Shown here: positions 18,083 to 30,888 of the stretch, piece by piece | Numbering within the stretch: the stretch's first letter is position 1 | How the letters are laid out: the number at the start of each line of letters is the position of its first letter | From: Frankiales bacterium | Lineage (GTDB): Bacteria; Actinomycetota; Actinomycetes; Mycobacteriales; SCTD01 | Assembly (NCBI GenBank): GCA_043747515.1 | Contig: JAYTOZ010000358.1 | Location: forward strand, 1 to 30,888 | Direction of reading: 5' to 3' | DNA: 30,888 bases | Position numbers and translations under genes: made by a program | The notes under the pieces: generated by a model | What the model saw: the letters and a program-made list of their open reading frames with translations, nothing else | What the model was told of the DNA's origin: nothing | Database searches by the model: none

Positions 18083-19516
18083 GTGCAGCAGTTGACCGGT
18101 CTGGACGCGGCCTTCCTGGCGCTGGAGACCCCCGGGGTCTACGGCCACGTCGGGAGCGTCTGCATCCTCGATGCCGCCAACGCGCCGGCACCGGTGACGC
18201 TGGAGTCGCTGACCCGGCTGCTCGAGTCGCGTCTGCACCTGGTGCCGGTCTTCCGCCGCCGGCTGGCCGAGGTGCCGTTCGGGTTCGATCAGCCCTACTG
18301 GATCGAAGACCCCGATTTTGACATCGAGTTCCATGTCCGCGAGATCGCGCTGCCCGCGCCGGGGGACGACAAGCAGCTCGCCGAGCAGGCCGCCCGGTTG
18401 CATGCCCGACCGCTCGACCGCAGCCGCCCGCTCTGGGAGCTCTACCTGATCTCTGGGCTGTCCGGCGGCCGGGTCGCGGTGTACAGCAAGGTGCACCACG
18501 CCGCGATCGACGGGGTCGGCGGCAACGACGTGCTGGCCGCCCTGCTCGATCTGACGCCTCAGGGCCGCGACCTCGAGCCCGCGCCGCCATGGTCGGGTGA
18601 CCATGTGCCGGGCCCGGTCGAGTTGCTGACCCGCAGTGCGGTCTCGATGTGGGGCCACCCGGCGCGAGCGGTGCGCCTGTCGACCCAGCTCGCCGCGTCG
18701 CTGCCCGGCATCATGCGCAACACCGCGATGCCGCGCCTACCGGTGGTCGACCGGCTGTGGCGGCGCAGTCAGAGCGCCGTGCTCAACCAGAGCAGCTTGC
18801 GCGCCCCGGCCACGCCGTTCAACAAGCGCATCTCGCCGCACCGCCGCTGGGCCTTCTGCACCGTCTCGCTCAGCGACGTCAAGAAGGTCAAGAACGCGCA
18901 GGGCTGCACCGTCAACGACGTCGTGATGGCGCTGTGCGCCGGTGCGCTGCGTCGCTGGCTGCTCGACCACGACGCGCTGCCGGACTCGCCGCTGATCGCG
19001 GCCGTCCCGGTCTCGATTCGCAGCGACGCACAGCAGGGCGCCGGGGGCAACCGGGTCTCGTCGATGATCGCGCCGATCCCGACCGACATCGCCGACCCGG
19101 GTGAGCGGCTCGCGCTGGTCCATGAGGCGATGCGGGCTGCCAAGGAGCAGCACGGCGCGTTGCCCGCGGACCTGCTCGCCGACGCGGCGCAGTTCGCGAT
19201 GCCGGCGCTGGCCGGCCAGGCAGCCCGGCTCAACGCCCGGTTGCGCCTGCTGGAGTGGCTCAGCCCGTTCAACCTGTTCATCTCCAACGTCCCGGGGCCC
19301 AACATCGCGCTTTACTATGCTGGTGCGAGATTGCTTGCCTACTACCCATTGTCGGCTATCGCTCATGGTCAGGGACTCAACATGACCGTGATGAGTTACG
19401 AGGACGGCCTGCACTTCGGGCTGCTGTCCTGCCGCGAGCTGGTGCCCGATCTTGACACGCTGGCCCACTACCTTGTCGACTCACTCGATGAGTTGCTCGC
19501 CCTCATCCCCGCCTGA
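18083..19516 (+). CDS. Wax ester synthase / diacylglycerol acyltransferase (WS/DGAT)
   Basis: LTGLDAAFL, PLDRSRPLWELY, HHAAIDG catalytic motif, TVNDVV, GNRVS and ISNVPGP. Confidence 0.95.
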   Translation: MQQLTGLDAAFLALETPGVYGHVGSVCILDAANAPAPVTLESLTRLLESRLHLVPVFRRRLAEVPFGFDQPYWIEDPDFDIEFHVREIALPAPGDDKQLAEQAARLHARPLDRSRPLWELYLISGLSGGRVAVYSKVHHAAIDGVGGNDVLAALLDLTPQGRDLEPAPPWSGDHVPGPVELLTRSAVSMWGHPARAVRLSTQLAASLPGIMRNTAMPRLPVVDRLWRRSQSAVLNQSSLRAPATPFNKRISPHRRWAFCTVSLSDVKKVKNAQGCTVNDVVMALCAGALRRWLLDHDALPDSPLIAAVPVSIRSDAQQGAGGNRVSSMIAPIPTDIADPGERLALVHEAMRAAKEQHGALPADLLADAAQFAMPALAGQAARLNARLRLLEWLSPFNLFISNVPGPNIALYYAGARLLAYYPLSAIAHGQGLNMTVMSYEDGLHFGLLSCRELVPDLDTLAHYLVDSLDELLALIPA

Positions 19517-19532
19517 TCCCCGGAGGCTTCCC

Positions 19533-19952
19533 GTGCCCGTCCCCGTCATCGGTTTTGCCCACGTCCGCCTGACCGTCACCGACATCGAGCGATCGCGGGC
19601 GTTCTACGACGCGGTCTTCGGCTTCCAGGTGGCCTACGAGCTGCCGGCCGGCGCGGATGCGGCGACCAGGCAGGCCCTCGGTTTCCTCTATGGCGGGGTG
19701 ATCTACACCTTCGGTGGCGGGCTGCTGGGGCTTCGTCCGGTGGCCCCCGGCGGGGACCGCTTCTCAGAGGACCGCTCGGGCCTTGACCACCTCTGCTTCA
19801 CCGTCGCCGGGCCGGCCGACCTGGAGATCGCCATCGGGGTGCTCGACGGCCTCGGCGTCGAGCACGGTCAGGTGAAGAATCTCGGTGAGGTGTCGATCCT
19901 TGAGTTCCGCGACCCGGACGGCATCGCGCTCGAGCTTTCAGCACCGAACTAA
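19533..19952 (+). CDS. VOC/glyoxalase family protein
   Basis: AHVRLTVTDIERSRAFY, GLDHLCF and FRDPDGIALE. GGAGG before GTG 19533. Confidence 0.9.
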   Translation: MPVPVIGFAHVRLTVTDIERSRAFYDAVFGFQVAYELPAGADAATRQALGFLYGGVIYTFGGGLLGLRPVAPGGDRFSEDRSGLDHLCFTVAGPADLEIAIGVLDGLGVEHGQVKNLGEVSILEFRDPDGIALELSAPN

Positions 19953-19962
19953 ACTCCGGCGG

Positions 19963-21039
19963 GTGACCATCGAGACCCTGCCCTCGCCGGTGCTTGCGGC
20001 CCGTCGCCTCGCCGACGACCTGCTCCGCCCCCAGGCCGAGCAGGTCGACGACGACGCCGTGCCGCGCTCGCATCTGGACGCCCTCGCCGCCGCCGGCCTG
20101 CTCGGCCTCACCGGACCTCCTGCGTACGGCGGGGCAGGGGTGCCCGCTCCGGTGGCCCGTGAGATCACCGAGTTGCTGGCCGGGGCCGACGCGGCGACCT
20201 GGTTCGTCTCGACCCAGCACGCCATGCCGCTGGGCATGCTGGCCGCCTCAGCCAACCAGGAGCTGCGCGAACGGCTGCTGCGGCCGCTGTGCACCGGCTT
20301 GTTGGCCGGGGTCGCGGTGGCCCACCTGCGCCGACCGGGTCGGCCGGCCGTCACTGCGACCCGGGTCGACGGCGGCTGGCGGTTCGACGGGCACGTCGGC
20401 TGGATGACCTCCTGGGGCATCTGCGACGTCTTCCTGCTCGCCGGGCTGTCCGGCGACGGCCAGGCAGTCTTCGCCCTGCTCCCGGCCGTCGAGGGCGGCG
20501 GCCTGACGGCGAGCCAGCCGATGCGACTCGCAGCGATGCAGGCGACCTCCACGGTGACCCTGGACCTCGCCGGCCTGAGAGCGACCGACGCCGACATCGT
20601 TGCGACGGAGCCTTATGACGGGTGGCTCGCGATCGACCGCGCGAAGACCGCGAACATCACCCCTGCGGTCTTCGGCCTGCAGGCCGACACGGTCCGCCGA
20701 CTCGCCGAGACCGCCCGCGACAGAGGCGATGCCACCGCTGCCGAGCTCGCCAACCGGCTGCGGGACGAGGCCGACGCCCTGCGGGTGCAGGCCTACGCCC
20801 TCATCGACCATGTGCCTGCCGACGAGCAGATCGAGGATCGGCTCGCCTTGCGGGCTGAAGCACTCGAGTTGCTGGTGCGCTCGGCCACCGCGCTCGTCGC
20901 CGCCACCGGCGGCAGCGCCATGGCGGTTGGGTCGGCGCCGCAACGCCGATTGCGCGAGGCCGGCTTCATGCTGGTGCAGGCCCAGACCGGCCCCGTCCGC
21001 GAGGCCACCCTGCAACGGCTGCTGGAGCGGACGGCGTGA
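19963..21039 (+). CDS. Acyl-CoA dehydrogenase superfamily flavoprotein (possibly monooxygenase-like)
   Basis: HLDALAAAGLLGL...YGGAG, GWRFDGHVGWMTS and RRLREAGF. TAAACT 7 nt before GTG 19963. Confidence 0.8.
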   Translation: MTIETLPSPVLAARRLADDLLRPQAEQVDDDAVPRSHLDALAAAGLLGLTGPPAYGGAGVPAPVAREITELLAGADAATWFVSTQHAMPLGMLAASANQELRERLLRPLCTGLLAGVAVAHLRRPGRPAVTATRVDGGWRFDGHVGWMTSWGICDVFLLAGLSGDGQAVFALLPAVEGGGLTASQPMRLAAMQATSTVTLDLAGLRATDADIVATEPYDGWLAIDRAKTANITPAVFGLQADTVRRLAETARDRGDATAAELANRLRDEADALRVQAYALIDHVPADEQIEDRLALRAEALELLVRSATALVAATGGSAMAVGSAPQRRLREAGFMLVQAQTGPVREATLQRLLERTA

Positions 21040-21806
21040 GCTGGCGGCTGACCGACAGCGACTGGAACTCCTGGCCGGATGGCCTGACCGACGCCCAGTT
21101 GTGGGCGCAGACCGCCAATCTCGGGCTCGACGGCATCGAGCTCGGCGTCTACGACGCGTCCGTCGAGCTTGCCCCCGCGCGGCTCGCCGCTCTGCCCGGC
21201 ACCGTGCCGGTGACCGACCTGCTGCTGTCGCTGCCCGCCACCCGCTGGCCGGGCGGGGCGCTGTCCGGCGACATCGACCGCCTCCTGACGCAGGTGCGCG
21301 CCTGCTCCGACGTCTGCCGCGACCTGGGCCTTGACGTCCTCGGTCTGTGGCCGGGCGCCGATCCGGTCGGCGCCGACGTCCTCGACGGGGTCCGGCGGGT
21401 CGTCGACGCAGCTGGCGACATCCGGATCGCGCTGGAGTACAAGCCGGACACCGCGGTAGCCACCTGCGACGATGTGATCGCCCTGTGCGCAGCCGTTCCC
21501 GGGCTCGGGGTGCTGCTCGACACCGGCCACGCCTACGCGAATCGCGAAGACCCGGCGCTGCTCGTCGAGCGGCTCGGCGGGCTGCTGCTGCACTGCCACC
21601 TCGGCGACGCGGCTGCCGGTGGGGGCGACGACGACCTGCCCTGCGGGCGGCTGCACGACTTCGGCACGTTCGTCGCCGCGCTGGATGCGACCGGCTGGTC
21701 CGGCACGGCCTCGTTCGACCTCTACGGCGCGGTCTCGAGCGGCCTGCTGACCGGTGGCCAGGCGGTCCGCGAGAGCCGCGACCACGTCCTTGCCACCCGC
21801 GCGTGA
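21036..21806 (+). CDS. Sugar phosphate isomerase/epimerase (xylose-isomerase-like TIM barrel)
   Basis: DGIELG, IALEYKP, LDTGHA and HCHLGD metal-ligand motifs. GTGA overlap. Confidence 0.85.
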   Translation: MSWRLTDSDWNSWPDGLTDAQLWAQTANLGLDGIELGVYDASVELAPARLAALPGTVPVTDLLLSLPATRWPGGALSGDIDRLLTQVRACSDVCRDLGLDVLGLWPGADPVGADVLDGVRRVVDAAGDIRIALEYKPDTAVATCDDVIALCAAVPGLGVLLDTGHAYANREDPALLVERLGGLLLHCHLGDAAAGGGDDDLPCGRLHDFGTFVAALDATGWSGTASFDLYGAVSSGLLTGGQAVRESRDHVLATRA

Positions 21807-22738
21807 GGGCCGTCGTCGCGCACGGTCCGGGGGATTTCCGGCTTGAGCAGGTCGAGGACCCGGTCGGCGACCTGCTCGTCGACGTCGAGGCCGCCGGAGT
21901 CTGCGCCGCCGACCGGATGCTCTGGACCGGCGACCATCCCTGGGGGACGCTGGCCTGGCCGTTCGTCCCCGGGCACGAGCTGCTCGGCCGCGACCCGGCT
22001 GGCCGACGGGTCACCACCGAGGTCAAGGTGCCGTGCGGGTCCTGCCCAGCCTGCGCGCGCGGCGAGGACCACCTGTGCCTGCACGGACGGCATCTGGGCA
22101 GCGGCTTTTCCGGTGCGTTCGCCGAGCGGGTGGCCCTGCCGGTCGGCGCCCGGGTGCACGACATCCCCGAGGCCCTCACCACCGAGCAGGCGGTGCTCGC
22201 CGAGCCGATGGCCTGCGCCCTGCATGCCGTACGCCGGGCCGGGGTCCGGCCCGGCGACCGGGTCGCCATTGCGGGCCTCGGCGGCCTCGGTGCGCTGGCG
22301 GTGCACGCCGCCCGCGCGCAGGGGGCGGCGCACGTGACGGCGGTCGTCCGGAGCGAGGACAAGGCCCGCCTTGCTCGGGAGTTGGGCTACGACGCCGCGA
22401 CGAAGGAGCCTTCCGGTGCGGCGTACGACACGGTCCTTGACGTGAGCGGTTCGGTTGATGCGGTGGCCGTTCTGCTGCGGGCGGTCCGGCCGGGCGGGCG
22501 GGTCGGTGTCTACGGCGTCTACCGCGAGCCGCTGCCGCTCGACCTCAACGGGCTCGCGGAATTTGGCGAGTTGACCGTCAGCGGTGGACATCTCGCCCCC
22601 GGCTGCTTCCCAGAGGCGATCGCCCTGCTGCACCTGGTCGACGGCGCGCTCGTCGTCACCGGCACCCATCCGCTCGAGCGGCTCACCGACGCGCTCGAGG
22701 CCCCGCAGCCCCGCCTGAAGGAGATCGTGCGCCCGTGA
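21803..22738 (+). CDS. Zinc-dependent (MDR) alcohol/polyol dehydrogenase
   Basis: GVCAAD, PGHE, CGSCPACARGEDHLC, EPMACA and AGLGGLG. Starts at GTG 21803 inside track ORF 21347..22738. Confidence 0.9.
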   Translation: MRAVVAHGPGDFRLEQVEDPVGDLLVDVEAAGVCAADRMLWTGDHPWGTLAWPFVPGHELLGRDPAGRRVTTEVKVPCGSCPACARGEDHLCLHGRHLGSGFSGAFAERVALPVGARVHDIPEALTTEQAVLAEPMACALHAVRRAGVRPGDRVAIAGLGGLGALAVHAARAQGAAHVTAVVRSEDKARLARELGYDAATKEPSGAAYDTVLDVSGSVDAVAVLLRAVRPGGRVGVYGVYREPLPLDLNGLAEFGELTVSGGHLAPGCFPEAIALLHLVDGALVVTGTHPLERLTDALEAPQPRLKEIVRP

Positions 22739-23373
22739 AGGACCTCATCGACGAGCTCATCACCGTCGGCCGCAAGGCGGTGGCGGCAGGGCTGGTGATC
22801 GGCAGCGGGGGCAACCTGTCGGCCCGCCTGCCCGGCGCGGACCAGTGCGTCGTGACGGCGAGCGGCTGCTGGCTCGACGAGCTGACACGGGACGATTTCT
22901 CGGTCGTCGCCATCACTGACGGCGCGGTGCGGGGCGGGCATCCCCGGCCGAGTAGCGAGACGCCGCTGCACCTCGCGACCTACCGGGTGCGAGCCGACGT
23001 CAACGCCGTCGTCCACCTGCACCCGCAGACCTCGGTGCTGCTCGACGCGCTCGGCCACCCGATTCGGCTGCTGACGATCGACCACGCCTACTACGTGCGC
23101 GAGGTGCGCTCGACGCCGTTCATCCAGAGCGGCACGCAGGAGCTCGCCGACGCCGGCGCGGCCGCGGTCGCGGATGGCTGCAACTGCGTCATCCTTGGCC
23201 ACCACGGCTGCTCGGCGCTGGGCGAGACCGTCGAGCTGGCCCACAAGCGGGCGGCGAATCTCGAGGAGGCCGCTCGCGCGACGCTCGTGATGTTGCAGCT
23301 CGGCGACACGACCACGGTCTGCCCGCCGGCCTACCTGGCGACCGTCCGGACCAGGGAGCGCGCCGCGCCGTGA
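22735..23373 (+). CDS. Class II aldolase/adducin family protein
   Basis: GSGGNLS, PSSETPLH, VVHLHP and ILGHHG metal-binding His motifs. Confidence 0.92.
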   Translation: MKDLIDELITVGRKAVAAGLVIGSGGNLSARLPGADQCVVTASGCWLDELTRDDFSVVAITDGAVRGGHPRPSSETPLHLATYRVRADVNAVVHLHPQTSVLLDALGHPIRLLTIDHAYYVREVRSTPFIQSGTQELADAGAAAVADGCNCVILGHHGCSALGETVELAHKRAANLEEAARATLVMLQLGDTTTVCPPAYLATVRTRERAAP

Positions 23374-24776
23374 GCCTGGTGGCCGGGCTCGACCTGGGGG
23401 GCTCGTCGGTCAAGGCCTGGGTCTGCGACGCCTCGGCGCCGCAGCAGGCCCTCGCTTCGCTCACTGTGCCGGCGCCGGTGTTGCGGCCGGCTCCGCACCG
23501 GGTGGAGTTCGTCCCCGGCGAGTGGGAGGCCGTCTGCCGCACCGCCCTGGCCGACGTCGTACGCCGTACCGGCCGGCCCGGCGCCGACTACGTCGGGGTC
23601 ACCGTCGGTTCGCTCCGGCAGGGCTTCGTGCTGTTGGACGGCGCCGGCGAACCGCTGGGCACCGGGGTGCTCAACAGCGACCGCCGGGGAGCCCCCTACG
23701 CCGGGGTGCTTGACGGCCAGCACCGGCTCACCGGGCACTGGCCGGCGCCGGAGCTGACCCTGCCCAAGCTGCTCGCGGTGCAGCACGACGAGCCGGCGCG
23801 GTGGGCGGCGACGGCGCGGGTGCTGTTCGTGCACGACTGGGTGCTGTGGCGGATGACCGGGGTGCAGGTCACCGAGTTGTCCTACGCCTGCGCGGGCGCG
23901 ATGGCCGACGTGGCCGGTCGGCGGTGGGCCACCGACCTGCTGGAGCAGTGCGGTGTCGGCGTCGGGCGACTCGCGCCGCTGGTCGAGGCCGGCAGCCGGG
24001 TCGCTGCGCTGGGCGAGGGCTGGGGCCTGCCGGTCTCGCTGCCCGTGGTCAGCGGGTGCGGCGACACCCAGCTCGCTGCGATGGGCGTCGGGGGCCTGGC
24101 CGACGGGGTCCTGACGGTCGTGGCCGGGTCGAGCACGCCGGTCCAGGTGGCCACCTCGGCGATGGTCGACGACCCGCTCGGCCGCCCGTGGGTGTCGACC
24201 CACGCAGCACAGGATCGCTGGGCAGCGGAGGGCAATGCCGGCTACCCCGGGACGGCACAGGGCTGGTGGGCCGGCCTCGTCCCGCGCGGTCAGGATGAGC
24301 CGGCGACCGGGCCGAGCCACGTCACGGCGGTCACGGCCGCGCCGTACTGGTCGCAGCAGACCTGGGAGCGCAAGCCACCGACGTCACTGCTGGGGCTGCG
24401 GCCCGAGACGACCGCCCGCGACGTGGCCGACGCCTTCGAACAGGCGCACGCCTACGCGGTGCGCGGCAACATCGAGGACCTCGAACGGGCCTTGCGCCGA
24501 GCCGCCTCAGCCGTCGTGGTCACCGGCGGGGCGGCTGCCGACGGCCGGCTGCCGGCCCTGCTCGCCGGGGTGCTCGGCCGAGACGTGCACTGGGCCAGAA
24601 GCGGCGGTGCGGCGCAGGCCGGCACGGTGCTGGTCGCGCGGGCGCTCGGGGCGCAACTGGACATTCCAGCCCTGCCGACGACGGTGTTGCCCGCCGGCGA
24701 CCCGGCGCCCTGGCAGGAGGGTTACGAGCGTTGGACGACGACGACCGAGGCGTTGCGCTCGGCTTTGGCCGGCTGA
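23370..24776 (+). CDS. FGGY-family carbohydrate kinase (LsrK/xylulokinase-like)
   Basis: GLDLGGSSVK, SLRQG, NSDRRG, HDWV, SGCGDTQLA and VTGGAA. Confidence 0.9.
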   Translation: MSLVAGLDLGGSSVKAWVCDASAPQQALASLTVPAPVLRPAPHRVEFVPGEWEAVCRTALADVVRRTGRPGADYVGVTVGSLRQGFVLLDGAGEPLGTGVLNSDRRGAPYAGVLDGQHRLTGHWPAPELTLPKLLAVQHDEPARWAATARVLFVHDWVLWRMTGVQVTELSYACAGAMADVAGRRWATDLLEQCGVGVGRLAPLVEAGSRVAALGEGWGLPVSLPVVSGCGDTQLAAMGVGGLADGVLTVVAGSSTPVQVATSAMVDDPLGRPWVSTHAAQDRWAAEGNAGYPGTAQGWWAGLVPRGQDEPATGPSHVTAVTAAPYWSQQTWERKPPTSLLGLRPETTARDVADAFEQAHAYAVRGNIEDLERALRRAASAVVVTGGAAADGRLPALLAGVLGRDVHWARSGGAAQAGTVLVARALGAQLDIPALPTTVLPAGDPAPWQEGYERWTTTTEALRSALAG

Positions 24777-25702
24777 GCCTTCCTGCCACGCTTGTCGAGG
24801 TACATCCGCCGGTCGGCCAGGCCCCAGGCGGTCTCGACGGCCTGGGACGGGTCCCACCAGGCCGCCCCGACCGACACCTGCAGCTGCTCGTCCCGCAGGG
24901 CCGCCTGCAGGCGGGCTGCGAGCTGTTCGGCGTCCCCGAAGCCGGCTGCCGGGCTGAGCACCCCGAACTCATCGCCGCCGAGGCGGGCCAGCACATCGGT
25001 GCGCCGGACCGCGCCCTGCAACGCGGTCGCCACCTTGGTGAGCAGCAGATCGCCGCTCGCGTGGCCGAGCCGGTCGTTCAAGGCCTTCAGCCCGTCGCAG
25101 TCGAGGCTGGCGAAGGCCAGCCCGCCGCCGTCGCGCTGGCAGCGCTCACGTTCCCGGTCCAGGGCGGTGATCCAGCCGAACCGACTGAGCACGCCGGTGA
25201 GCGGGTCGCGCATCGCCGCCGCTTCGGCCTCGTCGGCGCGCGCCGCCTCGATCCGACTGGCGGTGCTCGCCTCGTGGACGTGGGCCAGCAGGTCGGCGAG
25301 CATCTGGACCAGCGGCAGCACCTCCGCGAGGGACGGCGGCATCGGCTCCGGGTCGAACCCGCAGACGGTCCCGAGCAGCCGGCCGTCGACGGTGATCGGC
25401 GCCCCGACGTACGCCGAGATGGGCAGCTCGGTGCGCAGGGGTGCGGCGCCGAGCCGGGAGTCGTCGTCGAGGTTGGCCACCACCTGCGCGCCGGTGCCGC
25501 GCACCATCCGCCAGCACACGGTGTCGGTCCAGCGCAGCCGGGTGCCGGGTGGCACGCCGTAGCCGCGGTCGGCGACGGCGACGGGGATCCAGTCACCCGC
25601 CTGTTCGTCGATGTCGGCGACCACCCAGGCGTGCATCGGGGACTGGGTCTGCAAGAAGTCGACGACACGCTGGGCCGCGACGAGATAGCCGTCGTGCTGC
25701 AC
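24722..25702 (-). CDS. GAF-domain diguanylate cyclase
   Basis: N-terminal GAF (AYVGAPI..GTVCGFD), DPLTG, DCDGLKALNDRLGHASGD and RLGGDEF, with an RxxD I-site (RRTD). GGAGG before GTG. Confidence 0.92.
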   Translation of the reverse strand: MQHDGYLVAAQRVVDFLQTQSPMHAWVVADIDEQAGDWIPVAVADRGYGVPPGTRLRWTDTVCWRMVRGTGAQVVANLDDDSRLGAAPLRTELPISAYVGAPITVDGRLLGTVCGFDPEPMPPSLAEVLPLVQMLADLLAHVHEASTASRIEAARADEAEAAAMRDPLTGVLSRFGWITALDRERERCQRDGGGLAFASLDCDGLKALNDRLGHASGDLLLTKVATALQGAVRRTDVLARLGGDEFGVLSPAAGFGDAEQLAARLQAALRDEQLQVSVGAAWWDPSQAVETAWGLADRRMYLDKRGRKAQPAKAERNASVVVVQRS

Positions 25703-25812
25703 AGTGCCTCCGCTGGGTCGCGCGCGACGCGGGTCAGGGCAGCCGCGCCTAGTCTGCGGCCCGCCACCGGTCGCGTCACTGGCCCAAAAGGATGGTGCGG
25801 GACAGTGTCTGG

Positions 25813-26757
25813 ATGAGGGCCCTGGTCACCGCGGAGTTCACCGACGACGGCGTGATACGTCTGCGCGACCTCGGATACGAGGTGCGGCAAGCCGGCTGGG
25901 GCGCCACCCGGCAGCCGCTCGACACCTCCGCCCTGGTGGCGGCGGCGAGCGGGTGCACGCTGCTGGTGACCGAGCTCGAGGTCATCGACGCCGAGGTGCT
26001 CGCGGCGCTGCCCTCGGTGCAACTGGTCGCGACTGCTCGCGGCGGCCCGGTCAACGTCGATCTCGCCGCTTGTGCGGCTCGCGACGTGCCGGTCCTGTTC
26101 ACCCCCGGCCGCAATGCCGGGTCGGTCGCGGATTTCACCATCGGCCTGCTGCTCACGCTCTGCCGGGGGATCACCGCAGCTGATCGGCATCTGCGCGAGA
26201 GCGGCTGGCACGTCGGTGACGACCTGCCCTACCTGCACTTTCGCGGGCCGGAGCTTGCCGGCCGGGTGCTCGGCGTCGTCGGCCTGGGCGCGGTCGGCCG
26301 GCTCGTCGCCCAGCGCGCCTCGGCCGGCTTCGGCATGCGGGTCCTGCACCACGACCCGAACGTGGCGGGCTCGCTGCCGCTCCAGGAGCTGGTGGCCGCG
26401 GCCGACGTGCTTTCGCTGCACTGTCCACGCCTGCCGGCGACCCGCGGGCTGGTGGACGCCGGCCTGCTGGCCCGGTTGCGGCCGGCGTCCTACCTCCTGA
26501 ACACCGCCGGCGGGGGCGTCGTCGACGAGGACGCCCTGTGCGACGCCCTCGACGCCGGCCGGCTCGCCGGAGCGGCCCTGGACGTGTTCGCGACCGAACC
26601 GCTACCCAGGGACAGCCGGCTGCTGCGCACTCCCAGGTTGCTGCTGACGCCGCACCTGGCCGGCGCGGCCGACGACGTGGTGACGCACCACACATCGATG
26701 CTCTGCGACGACATCGAACGCTGGCACCGAGGGGAGCCCCTCATGCATCGCGCCTGA
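25813..26757 (+). CDS. D-isomer-specific 2-hydroxyacid dehydrogenase (no ACT domain)
   Basis: ARGGPVNVDL, TPGRNAGSVAD, GVVGLGAVG, SLHCP, LDVFATEP and TPHLAG. Confidence 0.9.
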   Translation: MRALVTAEFTDDGVIRLRDLGYEVRQAGWGATRQPLDTSALVAAASGCTLLVTELEVIDAEVLAALPSVQLVATARGGPVNVDLAACAARDVPVLFTPGRNAGSVADFTIGLLLTLCRGITAADRHLRESGWHVGDDLPYLHFRGPELAGRVLGVVGLGAVGRLVAQRASAGFGMRVLHHDPNVAGSLPLQELVAAADVLSLHCPRLPATRGLVDAGLLARLRPASYLLNTAGGGVVDEDALCDALDAGRLAGAALDVFATEPLPRDSRLLRTPRLLLTPHLAGAADDVVTHHTSMLCDDIERWHRGEPLMHRA

Positions 26758-26777
26758 TGCAGTCATAGGCTCCGGCG

Positions 26778-27923
26778 ATGGTTCACGTCGCTGTCCTCGG
26801 TGCCGGCCCGACCGGTCTGGAGGCGGCCCTCGCGGCCGTCCAGCGGGGGTGGGACGTCACGGTCTACGAGCAGGCGCCGCAGGTCGGTGGCCATGTCCGC
26901 GACTGGGGGCACGTGCAGCTGTTCACCCCCTGGTCGATGGGCGTGTCGCCCCGGGCCGTCGAGGCCCTTGGTCTGGTGCCCGGGGCGTCCTGCCCGACCG
27001 GCCATGAGTACGCCGAGCACCTGGACCGAGTGGCTGCGCTGCTGCCGGATGTCCAGCTGTCGACGCGGGTCGACCAGGTCGCCCGGACGGGCCTGCTCAA
27101 GAGCGAGGAGATCGGCAGCGAGGTGCGCGGGGCCACGCCGTTCCGGTTGCTGGTGATCGGGCCGGACGGCACCGAGCGGGTCGAGCATGCCGATGTCGTG
27201 CTGGACTGCTCGGGGACCTACGGCAACCCCAACCCGACCGGTGACGGCGGAATCCCGGCCCTCGGCGAGCGCGCCCTCGGTGACCGCGTCGTACGCCGGA
27301 TCCCCCGCGTCGACGCCGGCTGGGCGGGACGCCGAGTGCTGCTCGTCGGCGCCGGCTACAGCGCGCAGACCGTGGCCCGCGACCTCGTCGGCGTGGGCGC
27401 GCAGCTGACCTGGGCCATCCGCCGGGCAGAGCCGACCTGGGGCGCGGTCGAGGGTGACTCCCTGCCGGACCGCGCCGCGCTCGTCGCGTCGTCCCGTCGG
27501 ATCGCCGAGGGCGGCGACGTCATCAGGGGTGTGGTCGTCGAGGCCCTGCGGCCGGTCGGGGACGACGTGGTCGTGGTGCTCAGGCGGCAGGACAGCTCGA
27601 CGACGGAGGTCGTCGTCGACGTGGTCGTGTCGATGACCGGCGCGGTCGGCGACAGTCGGATCTACCGCCAGCTGCAGGTCCACGAGTGCTATGCGACCGA
27701 GGGTCCGATCGCGCTGGCCGCGACGCTGCTCGGCGCCGAGGGCGGCGACTGCCTGATGCAAACCTCGGCCGGCGTCGACGCGCTGCGCAACCCCGAGCCG
27801 CGGTTCTTCGTGCTCGGCAGCAAGAGCTACGGCCGCAACAACACCTTCCTGCTGCGGGTCGGTTGGGAACAGGTCGCCGAGGTCTTCGCGGCCCTCGACG
27901 AGGAGCTGCTCGCCGCGGTGTGA
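26778..27923 (+). CDS. FAD/NAD(P)-dependent oxidoreductase (flavoprotein monooxygenase-like, possibly arsenic-associated)
   Basis: Two Rossmann motifs (GAGPTG, GAGYSA), plus WGHVQLFTPW, QVHECYATEGP and GSKSYGRNNTFLL. TAGGCT 6 nt before ATG. Confidence 0.85.
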   Translation: MVHVAVLGAGPTGLEAALAAVQRGWDVTVYEQAPQVGGHVRDWGHVQLFTPWSMGVSPRAVEALGLVPGASCPTGHEYAEHLDRVAALLPDVQLSTRVDQVARTGLLKSEEIGSEVRGATPFRLLVIGPDGTERVEHADVVLDCSGTYGNPNPTGDGGIPALGERALGDRVVRRIPRVDAGWAGRRVLLVGAGYSAQTVARDLVGVGAQLTWAIRRAEPTWGAVEGDSLPDRAALVASSRRIAEGGDVIRGVVVEALRPVGDDVVVVLRRQDSSTTEVVVDVVVSMTGAVGDSRIYRQLQVHECYATEGPIALAATLLGAEGGDCLMQTSAGVDALRNPEPRFFVLGSKSYGRNNTFLLRVGWEQVAEVFAALDEELLAAV

Positions 27924-28023
27924 AGCAGCGCGGTCGGGGCAGGCCGTGTGACTGGCGACAGCCTCGGCCGGCATGTGCTCAATCGGCTCCGTCATCACCG
28001 ACCTGGCCGGTCCTACCGTCGAG

Positions 28024-28152
28024 CGTCGCAAGCCGCGCCCGAGGCGGGCCTCACCGTCTTTGGTGCTCGACGAAAAAGCCCGCACCAAAGGCGGCTACGG
28101 CGGGATCCTCGGCGTGGGGCAGGGTTCGGTGCATCCGCCGCGGCTGGTCCAG
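28024..28152 (+). pseudogene. pepA: Frameshifted internal fragment of leucyl aminopeptidase (M17)
   Basis: [12 protein letters not shown] in one frame, a +1 shift at TTTG (28059-28062), then [30 protein letters not shown], which resembles the conserved actinobacterial PepA segment preceding the GKGITFD motif. No start or catalytic motifs. Confidence 0.75.
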
Positions 28153-28176
28153 GCAGGCAACCAGAGGTCTCCTGTT

Positions 28177-28206
28177 CGGCGGGATGGGGGAGGTCTTTCC
28201 CCGCCG
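28177..28206. terminator. Hairpin between convergent transcription units
   Basis: CGGCGGG (28177-28183) and CCCGCCG (28200-28206) form an inverted repeat just past the arsR stop. Confidence 0.35.
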
Positions 28207-28218
28207 TACTCCCTGTCA

Positions 28219-28578
28219 TCAACCGCCGTGCGTATCAATCTCCGCAGATGTGCGGCAGCACGTGTCGTTACCGCCGGGCCGGGCCGAGGCAGGCAGATCC
28301 GCCTCGTCGAGGACGGCATCCAGGGCCGCCCGGGCCGCGGCGAGGCCGGCTGGATCCAGGGCGTAGTGCGTGAAACCGTCCGCGTGCCGCCGGGTGACCA
28401 GGCCGCAGGCGGCGAGCTTGGCCAGGTGGTGGCTGACCAGCGGCTGGGCGAGCCCGGACTGCTCGACCAGCTCGCGCACGCACTGCTCGCTGCGACGCAG
28501 GGCGCGCACGAGCTCGAGCCGGTGCGGCTCGGACAGCGCTCGCAGCACCTCCTGAACGTCCAGGGTGGCAGCGGCCAT
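28219..28578 (-). CDS. arsR: ArsR/SmtB family transcriptional regulator with C-terminal Cys-Cys
   Basis: 119 aa: [32 protein letters not shown] and DTCCRT. TGATG overlap with the methyltransferase; C-terminal part of track ORF 28219..29655. Confidence 0.9.
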
Positions 28579-29738
28579 CAGCAGCAGGGCGCGTCGGTGG
28601 CGCTGGACAGCCCGCGCAGGTCCCGCTGCAGTGGCGCAGCCGGACCCGCTGCCGTCAAGGCCGCCGGCGGCGCGCAGGCGAACATCGGCGCGGTTTCCGG
28701 GTCGACCGGCTCGGCCGGTGACAGCAGCTCGAAGGCCCCGGCGTACGGCGCCTTGGCCAGGATGTCGAAGGTCTTGGCACAGACCGCGGTCGCGACACCG
28801 CGCTCGTAGACGTGGTCGTCGTCGTCGAGCACGGCCTTGAACGGGCCCCGCAGCACGACCGCCTGGCCGTGGTCCATGCACGGGCCGTGTTTGCCCTTGT
28901 AGGCCACGACCGTGACGGAGCGGAACTCGATGCCCTCGACGACCTGCCACGGGGCGCTGTCGCGCTTGTCCAGGGTGACGCCGTAGAAACCAGCTTCCTC
29001 GAAGGCGCGCAGGAAGGCCTCCTGTTCGTACGCGCCGGAGATGCAGCCGCTCCACAGGTCGGCGTCGGCGCGCAGATGGTCGGGCACCTCGACGTCGCTG
29101 ACGATGTCGGAGATGACCGCCCGGCCACCGCGGCGCAGCACCCGGAAGATCTCGCCGAACAGCGCCGGCTTCTGCTCGTGCGCCACCAGGTTGAGCACGC
29201 AGTTGGACACGACCGCGTCGACCGAGTCGTCGGCGACCAGCGGCACCTGGAGCTTCTGCTGCTGTACGAAGGCGTCGTACGCCGTGATGCCGGCGAAGTC
29301 GGTCACCGGGTTGGCCTGGAGCCAGGCCTCGCTGGCCGCGACGTCGAGCCGCATGTCCTGGATCTTGCCCTTGCGGAACTCCACATTGTCGTAGCCGACT
29401 GCAGCAGCGACCTGCGGAGCGGCGCCGCGGGCGAGATCGAGCATCTCGTCGGTCATGTCGATCCCGATCACCCGACCGGTGGCGCCGACGACCTGCGAGG
29501 CGATGAAACAGATCTTGCCGCCGCCGCTGCCGAGGTCGAGGACCGTCTCGCCCTCGAGCAGGTGGGTGCTCGGGTCGCCGCAGCCGTAGTCGCGGTCGAG
29601 CACCTCCTGCGGGATGACGGTGAGCAAGCGCGGGTCGTAGTCGACCGGACAGCACAGCGCCGCCTCGACGGCCTGCGCGCCGGCGCCGTAGCGGTCCACG
29701 ACGGACTGTTCGACGGCAGCGTCGGTGGTCAGGGTCAT
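28578..29738 (-). CDS. arsM: Arsenite methyltransferase (ArsM/AS3MT)-like SAM-dependent methyltransferase with C-terminal extension
   Basis: SAM motifs LDLGSGGG and GIDMTDEML. All four ArsM-type Cys motifs are present (ALCCP, YGCGDP, SNCVLNL, SGCISGA). Extra C-terminal domain and terminal PCC. AGGAG before ATG 29738. Confidence 0.8.
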
Positions 29739-29748
29739 GTCGGGTCTC

Positions 29749-30888
29749 CTAGACGGCGCAGTTGTAGACGAGGGGCAGGGATCCATCGGCGCGACGCAGG
29801 GTCAGGAAGTGCTCGACGGCGAGGCGCTTGCCCTCTGCCAGCGACACCCACTCATCCGGCGAGGGGTGCTTGGCGAGCAGCATGTCCGGGCTTGTGTCGA
29901 CGTCCGCGCCGGCCGGGTGCCAGTGCATCCCGTCGGCGGTGACGGTCAACTCGGGCACCGTGTTGCCGTCGTCGATGACCGCTCCGTCGGTGGAGAAACC
30001 ACGTGCGACCAGCGGGCGTACGGCAAAGTCCTTGCCGGTGATGCCCATGCCGGCCAGCAGCGCTCGCAGCGGCTCGACCTCATGGACGTTGTCCGGGGTT
30101 GAGGTCATCCCGACCCGCACCGGCAACCCGAGGCCCTTGGCGAGCGCCAGGCCGTCCATGGCCTTCTGCCAGGACCCGGCCCCACGGTTGATGTCATGGC
30201 CTGGGGCCGAGGCCGCGTCGATCGACGTCTGCAGGACGAGCCGCTCACACCCCGCCAGCCGCTTCAGCTGCTCGAGCCGCCAGCCCTGGTAGAGCATGCC
30301 GTTGGTGAGCAGGACGACGTCGAGCCGATCCGTCGCGTAGAGCACCATCTCGACGATGTCGGGTTCGAGGAAGGGCTCGCCGCCGGTGACGTAGACCTCG
30401 GTGAAGCCCTCGGCGACCGCCTCGTCGACGAGCGCCCGGAAGCGGTCGAGGCCCACCGACCGTTTGCTGGCCTGTGGGCTCGAGGCCACCGAGCAGTAGG
30501 AGCAGGACAGGTTGCAGTGGAAGTTGGTGTAGAGCCACAGCCGGGGCGGGAACAGCGGTGAGCCGAACAGCGGCACCACCGGCAGCCCGTCGTCGACGGC
30601 CTCCGGCGCGTCGGCCCAGCTGACCTGCTCCTGCTCAAAACCGTCCGGCAGGGCGGAACGGTAGAGCTGGTAGCGACCCTTGGACCGCTCGTAGGGCGGG
30701 ACGACCTCGAGACACGTTGTCCACCAGCCGGTCTCGACGGTCTCCACGAACGCCTCGGGCAGCCCACCGGCGCGCATCGAGGCGGCCTGCGCCGGCCAGT
30801 CGTAGGCCAGCGGCACGAGCTCGGCGCCGACCCGGCCGTCGACGAGATCAACCATGGCGTACCAGACCTCGCGCCGCCCATCGTTGGC
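29749..30888 (-). CDS. Radical SAM protein (Rv1681/MoeX-like) with N-terminal extra domain; 5' end probably outside window
   Basis: LWLYTNFHCNLSCSYC (CxxxCxxC), TGGEPFL, LTNG and VPELTVTADGMHWHP. The frame stays open upstream of ATG 30855 to the window edge (ANDGRREVWYA). Confidence 0.88.
   Translation of the reverse strand, partial: ANDGRREVWYAMVDLVDGRVGAELVPLAYDWPAQAASMRAGGLPEAFVETVETGWWTTCLEVVPPYERSKGRYQLYRSALPDGFEQEQVSWADAPEAVDDGLPVVPLFGSPLFPPRLWLYTNFHCNLSCSYCSVASSPQASKRSVGLDRFRALVDEAVAEGFTEVYVTGGEPFLEPDIVEMVLYATDRLDVVLLTNGMLYQGWRLEQLKRLAGCERLVLQTSIDAASAPGHDINRGAGSWQKAMDGLALAKGLGLPVRVGMTSTPDNVHEVEPLRALLAGMGITGKDFAVRPLVARGFSTDGAVIDDGNTVPELTVTADGMHWHPAGADVDTSPDMLLAKHPSPDEWVSLAEGKRLAVEHFLTLRRADGSLPLVYNCAV

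Follow-up and report, generated by a model that had tools for sequence, protein, structure and literature searches.

A Car1-like phosphoesterase-fold domain fused to a radical SAM domain in Actinomycetota: a candidate carbon–arsenic bond-forming enzyme

Contig JAYTOZ010000358.1 of a Frankiales bacterium (assembly GCA_043747515.1) was analyzed; its 30,888 nucleotides are hereafter the window. It ends inside a minus-strand gene that encodes a metallophosphoesterase-like domain fused to a radical S-adenosylmethionine (SAM) domain; genes for an ArsM-like methyltransferase and an ArsR-family repressor follow it. Judged by alignment, the N-terminal domain is a derived member of a clade of proteins resembling the arsenate reductase Car1, some of which are encoded in ars operons. 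We consider it an evenly balanced proposition that the fusion joins a Car1-derived domain, reducing or binding arsenicals, to a radical SAM domain that forms carbon–arsenic (C–As) bonds and is distinct from ArsS and ArsL. To our knowledge, these two are the only radical SAM enzymes known to make such bonds. More tentatively, the fusion may represent a third class besides them, with its own Car1-derived reductase or carrier domain for arsenicals, and may define a widespread organoarsenical pathway in soil Actinomycetota, of which the operon described here would be a reduced, ArsM-coupled version.

The minus-strand frame is open from its stop codon (29749–29751) to base 30888, 11 codons (ANDGRREVWYA) past an ATG at 30855. 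A preliminary description of this DNA had read both the frame and the peptide correctly, and the GAGG it reported 11 nt before that ATG is in place. Because the window is an entire contig (C358, one of 510 in an assembly that is 82% complete), the break in the gene is an assembly end and not biology. The database protein P0001 (564 amino acids; eight member sequences, with source contigs of up to 92 kb) is identical to the window part at 378 of 379 positions (99.7%), and the alignment makes that part residues 186–564. A same-genus genome (G003), 92.9% identical at the DNA level, carries the 564-codon gene intact, with an ATG start. In the full protein the ATG at 30855 becomes Met197, which sits within the conserved strand V193-W194-Y195-A196; the gene therefore does not start there. 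The missing 5′ 185 codons were not found on the other contigs of this 82%-complete assembly. The features of the gene are as follows.

29749..30888, minus strand: phosphoesterase-like/radical SAM fusion gene, 3′ part (codons 186–564 and stop), from the open reading frame and the P0001 alignment; the 5′ 185 codons lie past the contig end.
30658..30888, minus strand: C-terminal third of the putative Car1-like phosphoesterase-fold module (residues 186–261), with PANDG, Y214-D215-W216, GLPxxF, GWWTTC244LE and PPxER, from the PDB 3rqz alignment, Foldseek and conservation.
30574..30657, minus strand: variable inter-domain linker (about residues 262–290), with low conservation and a predicted local distance difference test score (pLDDT) below 50.
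29752..30573, minus strand: radical SAM domain (residues 291–564), PF04055 E 4e-20, with fold matches to SkfB, BlsE and anSME.
30493–30516, minus strand: CxxxCxxC motif (C310, C314 and C317), read from the sequence.
29758..29760, minus strand: codon for Cys562, third residue from the C-terminus (tail x-C-A-V/I), from C-terminal octamers; invariant in alignment A1.

The preliminary description had predicted a phosphoesterase–radical SAM fusion from the 3′ part of the gene, and the full-length protein bears this out. P0001 matches PF12850 Metallophos_2 at residues 13–200 (50.2 bits, cut-off 27) and then PF04055 Radical_SAM on the same chain; with two more distant members it places the domains at about 13–200 and 309–459. 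An AlphaFold model has two folded domains (mean pLDDT 73). In Foldseek the predicted N-terminal domain takes a phosphoesterase fold, matching SapH (3qfm), 3rqz, 2gju and 1nnw with template modeling scores of 0.76–0.78, and the C-terminal domain matches SkfB, BlsE and anSME. The segment YD...M..GLP..F, which the earlier reader had likened to the C-terminal part of calcineurin-like metallophosphoesterases, corresponds in the 3rqz alignment and fold matches to the C-terminal element of SapH/3rqz-type metallophosphoesterases. What had been called a low-complexity linker is variable at residues ~262–290, but the preceding motif GWWTTCLEVVPPxERSxGRYQLY (239–261) is invariant or nearly so. The model has pLDDT below 50 at residues 242–291, and stand-alone relatives stop on this motif, at the GRY/GRF step.

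The fusion is widespread. A locus search seeded with a four-sequence alignment, with one genome scanned per species, found relatives in at least 582 species genomes, mostly of Actinomycetota. Carriers include Streptomyces, Modestobacter, Conexibacter, Pseudonocardiaceae, Solirubrobacterales, Acidimicrobiales, Dormiibacterota and one metagenome-assembled genome of Acidobacteriota. A survey of fused and split forms had been proposed, and in it fusion is the rule: in the best 80 of the at least 582 loci about 78 carry a single open reading frame of ~560 amino acids, the exceptions being two or three that are broken or truncated. The complete genome of Conexibacter sp. DBS9H8 (G042) has two copies (C1:1272294 and C1:3365139), both in 573-amino-acid frames. 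None of the conclusions draws on the unpublished genomes G005 and G030.

The active site of the phosphoesterase-like domain is remodeled. Motifs were compared in 159 domains, 79 from the actinobacterial fusions (subfamily 1) and 80 from a second subfamily (subfamily 2) whose members come mostly from soil, freshwater and marine metagenome contigs. Residues 3–239 align with PDB 3rqz, and opposite its SDVHAN the aspartate and histidine of motif I (DxH) are replaced by G9 (159 of 159) and Y11 (158 of 159); the final His of GHxH is G164 in every domain. D37 (motif II), N63 (motif III), H127 (motif IV) and H162 (motif V) are invariant. Thus, of the DxH, GD, GNH and H motifs for which a search had been suggested, those at D37, N63, H127 and H162 are kept, but DxH and the last His of GHxH are not. 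In the metallophosphoesterase superfamily, DxH and this last His are ligands at metal site 1, and residues of the D37, N63, H127 and H162 type are ligands at site 2. By this textbook assignment, only one of the four ligands at site 1 remains, and site 2 is intact.

A Cys-x-Cys pair after motif III (C75 and C77) is present in 159/159 domains and C34 in 155; C160 and C244 are fixed in the actinobacterial fusions only. Directly after N63, subfamily 1 has Tyr and subfamily 2 has Cys (GNY or GNC, as in the YfcE group). A search of NCBIfam with the N-terminal domain alone, at E values up to 1, returned only weak matches to YfcE (18 bits), LpxH and PRK09453, and no arsenosugar-associated phosphoesterase model. 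The archaeal structures closest in fold, 1nnw and 2gju, are ligand-poor too (ANIAGN for DxH, GN for GD and GKY for GNH). They do not have the Cys-Gly-Cys (CGC) pair, so no solved structure displays it.

The cysteines point to Car1, which reportedly binds arsenate at a binuclear site and is coupled to thioredoxin. According to PMC12124457, Car1 is a metallophosphoesterase-type As(V) reductase in which Cys74 and Cys76 are essential; its source is Rufibacter tibetensis (cited there as Shen et al. 2024, Mol Microbiol 122:201). The same paper describes orf1, 40% identical to Car1, in arsR-orf1-acr3-arsM operons of arsenic-methylating Paraclostridium. Our search recovered a relative, P0241, that has the CGC pair and retains DxH and GHTH, and which as a query matches 180 plasmid records. 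Among these records, CGC-bearing relatives lie in an arsR-metallophosphoesterase-arsM arrangement on a Paraclostridium bifermentans plasmid and in arsR-DUF6428-metallophosphoesterase-acr3 on a plasmid of Pontibacter kalidii, a genus of the same family as Rufibacter. The Pontibacter protein can be aligned over its whole length with residues 1–239 of P0001 (27% identity, E 1e-34), its ECGC falling opposite C75/C77. Because of this alignment and the register of the cysteines, we place the N-terminal domain within the Car1-like clade.

The likeness to Car1 and its ars-operon relatives extends to a fold of the SapH/3rqz-type subfamily with the C-terminal Y-D...GLP element, to a GNYD motif III, to Cys-Gly-Cys at the same position (C75/C77 versus Cys74/Cys76) and to an arsenic context adjoining arsR and arsM. 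The Car1-like proteins are stand-alone, ~250 amino acids long, and have a full two-metal site, whereas the fusion has GGxY at motif I, THSG for GHxH, an added GWWTTCLE..PPxER tail and the radical SAM domain. DxH and GHTH are kept in the Pontibacter and Paraclostridium proteins, P0241, P0260 and P0269, and are absent from the fusion and its stand-alone kin.

Gene neighborhoods in other lineages connect the fusion with ArsS, the radical SAM enzyme that adds a 5′-deoxyadenosyl group to dimethylarsenite in arsenosugar synthesis. Neighbors were clustered all-against-all in 80 genome loci, and counts refer to the 45 of them whose 8-kb flanks are complete. A GT2 glycosyltransferase that scores 228 bits on TIGR04283 (cut-off 182; "arsenosugar biosynthesis glycosyltransferase") is present in 33 of the 45, typically 65 bp upstream of the fusion on the same strand; it also stands beside the fusion in G039, G183 and G200. 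Other recurrent neighbors are a second, divergent radical SAM protein with a CNLACTPC motif and no Pfam match (33 loci), the flavoprotein family of the window gene at 26778–27923 (32), a MerA/lipoamide-dehydrogenase-like disulfide reductase (23), an MTAP-like phosphorylase (18) and an ArsM-like methyltransferase (14).

Among 200 Actinomycetota genomes, each at least 90% complete, the glycosyltransferase occurs in 16, ArsS in seven and the fusion in two; ArsS and the fusion never share a genome. The glycosyltransferase adjoins ArsS in four genomes (in two as glycosyltransferase-ArsS-MTAP-like), the fusion in two, a fusion of ArsM to a radical SAM/SPASM protein in one and another radical SAM gene in one. 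The glycosyltransferase-ArsS-MTAP-like and glycosyltransferase-fusion-MTAP-like cassettes are homologous apart from ArsS and the fusion. In five further genomes that carry the fusion cluster, nothing scores above the ArsS cut-off, and where checked the fusion itself is the best match to the ArsS model. Given this alternation beside the same glycosyltransferase and MTAP-like genes, the fusion, by sequence comparison, occupies the ArsS slot of a homologous cassette.

Two of these neighbors deserve description. The second radical SAM protein (~470 amino acids; for example L064:6506-7906, minus strand) is the commonest neighbor of the fusion overall, in 50 of the 80 loci (L020–L099). It carries a Cys/His ribbon at its C-terminus and matches nothing in Pfam, NCBIfam or the PDB, and in the ESM Atlas it falls among "radical SAM" clusters of Actinomycetota. 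In the actinobacterial genome G137 (L199:7620-9770, plus strand) the TIGR04283 glycosyltransferase is followed by a 717-amino-acid fusion of an arsenite methyltransferase (NF008823, 212 bits) with a SPASM radical SAM protein, another single-chain link between ArsM and radical SAM.

Subfamily 2 shows the phosphoesterase-like domain with alternative partners. Domains 53–68% identical to the query domain of P0219 are fused to radical SAM or to ArsM; the best 120 clusters comprise ~100 radical SAM fusions and ~12 ArsM fusions. The ArsM identity was checked by score or name for two of these: P0219 reaches 465 bits on the arsenosugar-ArsM model NF038099 (cut-off 400), and P0292 carries the NCBI name of an arsenosugar ArsM. 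Of 80 metagenome loci, 43 have the domain either on one chain with its radical SAM partner or encoded directly after the gene for that partner. These partners suggest that the domain travels with enzymes that share trivalent arsenicals and SAM as substrates. Loci L109–L188 include both phosphoesterase–radical SAM fusions and separate genes in the reverse order (radical SAM, then phosphoesterase-like), which implies independent fusion or fission.

The radical SAM domain has the canonical C310-x3-C314-x2-C317 motif (PF04055, 73 bits), and 76 of 77 complete fusions have this motif; the domain has neither a SPASM nor a second cluster motif. Its top-scoring NCBIfam family is NF049973, the Rv1681 (MoeX) family, at 261 bits against a cut-off of 380. 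The match covers model positions 72–287 of 326, leaving both ends unmatched; a true member, P0169, scores 457 bits. Stand-alone Rv1681-like paralogues in related genomes were considered as split forms of the fusion and rejected, as the four found have no phosphoesterase-like neighbor within ~7–8 kb (less at contig ends). The literature search found no paper that joins metallophosphoesterase, radical SAM and ArsM, or Rv1681 with radical SAM. On the ArsS model TIGR04167 the domain scores 39.8 bits (cut-off 300), over the N-terminal core at model positions 11–147 only, and a true actinobacterial ArsS scores 414 bits. The ArsL family, NF040542, falls outside the 25 best NCBIfam matches, the weakest of which scores 38.6 bits.

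The protein ends LVYNCAV in the window, and C-A-V or C-A-I occurs in all 15 of the commonest C-terminal octamers (60 of 77 complete actinobacterial fusions). The radical SAM partners of subfamily 2 end HCxxFCxxGGxSC, resembling the ArsS tail HCYGCIAGRGSSC. The Cys tail of ArsL binds As(III) (bioRxiv 10.1101/2024.02.01.577332), and by analogy we infer that the C-terminal cysteines here hold an arsenical. With ArsS, the fusion shares a CxxxCxxC radical SAM domain, conserved C-terminal cysteine(s) and, in other Actinomycetota, the position beside the TIGR04283 glycosyltransferase and MTAP-like phosphorylase. It differs in having no DUF3641-type Cys-rich domain, a single tail Cys and the extra N-terminal domain. 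With the ArsL and ArsM of arsinothricin synthesis, it shares the canonical cluster motif, a Cys tail and the pairing of radical SAM with an ArsM nearest the arsinothricin type, but it has a YNCAV instead of an RCCLKC tail, no detectable membership of the ArsL family, no ArsQ and an N-terminal Car1-like domain.

In the window, the fusion heads a set of genes that fits an arsenic operon.

28578..29738, minus strand: ArsM-like SAM methyltransferase, 386 amino acids, NF040538 330 bits (cut-off 500), with Cys motifs LCCP, YGCG, SNCV and SGC.
28219..28578, minus strand: ArsR-family repressor, 119 amino acids, with a C-terminal Cys-Cys pair, PF01022 E 2e-14.
26778..27923, plus strand: FAD/NAD(P)-binding flavoprotein, converging on the operon, Pfam Pyr_redox_2/3, neighbor cluster 3.

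The methyltransferase gene starts 10 nt past the fusion stop, with a GGAG that overlaps this stop, and the ArsR ATG overlaps the methyltransferase stop (TGATG). From these junctions the fusion is translationally coupled to the ArsM-like and ArsR genes, which argues for one operon. The methyltransferase matches the arsinothricin-type ArsM family (NF040538) over positions 25–352 of 356, and scores 200 bits on the arsenite methyltransferase subfamily NF008823 and 120 bits on the arsenosugar type. All four ArsM cysteine motifs are visible; in addition, the protein ends ...DAPCC, a C-terminal Cys-Cys pair, and Pfam splits its methyltransferase domain in two stretches, which indicates an insertion. 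The ArsR protein has a Cys in its DNA-binding region (SEQCV), another in AACGL and the C-terminal pair, with no third tail Cys. Tails with two Cys are reportedly typical of methylarsenite-selective ArsR repressors (attributed to Chen, Nadar and Rosen 2017), and by analogy such a repressor would fit an organoarsenical operon. The flavoprotein family has 34 matches among the neighbors, at 53–72% identity. At the model cut-offs, this genome has no TIGR04283 glycosyltransferase, ArsS or second radical SAM, and its complete family relatives G012, G014 and G024 have no TIGR04283 glycosyltransferase either. The absence of the glycosyltransferase and the second radical SAM here points to a reduced, ArsM-coupled form in this lineage, with a product that may differ from that of the larger cluster.

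Together, these observations suggest the following scheme, every chemical step of which we infer from sequence. The N-terminal domain, of Car1-type descent, keeps the redox pair C75/C77 and metal site 2 but not site 1. It would bind an arsenical, probably reduce a pentavalent one, and pass the trivalent species on; a thiol/flavoprotein system, for example one with the conserved neighbor at 26778–27923, could return its disulfide to the dithiol. With a trivalent and probably methylated arsenical bound at Cys562, the radical SAM domain would then form the C–As bond, most likely by addition of the 5′-deoxyadenosyl radical, as in ArsS. The co-translated methyltransferase would supply or finish the methyl groups, and ArsR would render the operon arsenic-responsive.

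Several points weigh against this scheme. An ArsM-like gene lies within 8 kb in only 14 of the 45 full-flank loci, and TIGR04283 owes its "arsenosugar" name to gene association alone. In Car1-like proteins the binuclear site is complete; reductase activity may therefore have disappeared along with site 1. The radical SAM domain falls below the ArsS and Rv1681 cut-offs and has no ArsL-family match among its 25 best. No arsenic gene was found around the subfamily-2 pairs within the flanks examined (up to 8 kb). For the operon in the window, the absent glycosyltransferase and second radical SAM may mean a different product, and a methyltransferase nearest the arsinothricin type fits ArsL-like rather than ArsS-like chemistry.

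The last point leads to an alternative in which the radical SAM domain transfers a 3-amino-3-carboxypropyl group to As(III), as ArsL does, the ArsM-like enzyme methylates the product to an arsinothricin-like antibiotic, and the N-terminal domain only holds As(III) through its cysteines. The 330 against 120 bits of the methyltransferase favor this, as do the canonical CxxxCxxC and As(III)-binding Cys tail that ArsL too possesses and the lack of the TIGR04283 glycosyltransferase in this genome and its family relatives; the MTAP-like neighbor found elsewhere would suit removal of methylthioadenosine. We nevertheless regard it as unlikely: the ArsL model is missing from the best matches and the tail is not of the RCCLKC type, the methyltransferase stays under the 500-bit equivalog cut-off, the fusion replaces ArsS beside glycosyltransferase and MTAP-like genes in other lineages, and no ArsQ-like permease or ArsN was found among the eight genes scanned at 18083–28581. 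If arsenic were instead irrelevant in most carriers, the N-terminal domain would be a structural or substrate-binding pseudo-enzyme, the radical SAM domain would modify a lipid, sugar or cofactor, and adjacency to ArsM and ArsR would be accidental or secondary. The low count of ArsM-like neighbors speaks for this, together with the position of subfamily-2 pairs among housekeeping genes (ApaG, GTP cyclohydrolase I, TrkH and Hsp33) and the prominence of a second divergent radical SAM protein to which no role is assigned. Such a role is rather improbable given that the invariant CxC is the catalytic pair of Car1, that the same domain is fused to ArsM proteins, that the fusion and ArsS alternate beside the same genes, and that the gene is coupled to ArsM-like and ArsR genes here.

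The preliminary description had proposed radical chemistry coupled to dephosphorylation. The radical SAM reaction would involve a nucleotide- or sugar-phosphate intermediate on which an active metallophosphoesterase acts, for example a ribose-1-phosphate derivative from the MTAP-like phosphorylase, which in related clusters would yield a sugar 1-phosphate; the Metallophos_2 match, the phosphoesterase fold and the intact metal site 2 agree with such a role. However, none of the 159 domains keeps the Asp and His of motif I or the final His of GHxH, and we know of no member of the superfamily shown to work with a site so remodeled. The domain is also fused to ArsM, which makes no phosphorylated product, and neither an MTAP-like nor a glycosyltransferase gene accompanies the fusion in this genome. 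With the Car1 Cys-x-Cys conserved and a gene context of arsenic, not phosphate, we consider the proposal very improbable and do not retain it.

Should the C–As bond-forming scheme hold, it would add an unstudied route of arsenic biotransformation in soils, and a two-metal hydrolase site stripped to one metal and a redox cysteine pair. The extra domain is closest kin to a very recently described kind of arsenate reductase, and actinomycetes are believed to produce few arsenicals other than methylated ones and bisenarsan (PMC12159101). The scheme is directly testable in culturable strains; the carriers of the fusion include cultured Streptomyces, such as S. alboflavus NRRL B-2373, as well as cultured Modestobacter and Conexibacter.

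In near relatives an aldehyde dehydrogenase gene lies upstream, and some of them carry genes for a PhnD-type ABC system that separate the fusion from the methyltransferase. Downstream of the fusion, a binding protein of the PhnD/PstS type is encoded together with an ABC permease at L018:3244-7252 and in L022, L023, L029, L030 and L079; in L022, L023, L029 and L030 these genes lie between the fusion and the ArsM-like gene. They could serve the uptake of an organoarsenical or a phosphonate analogue.

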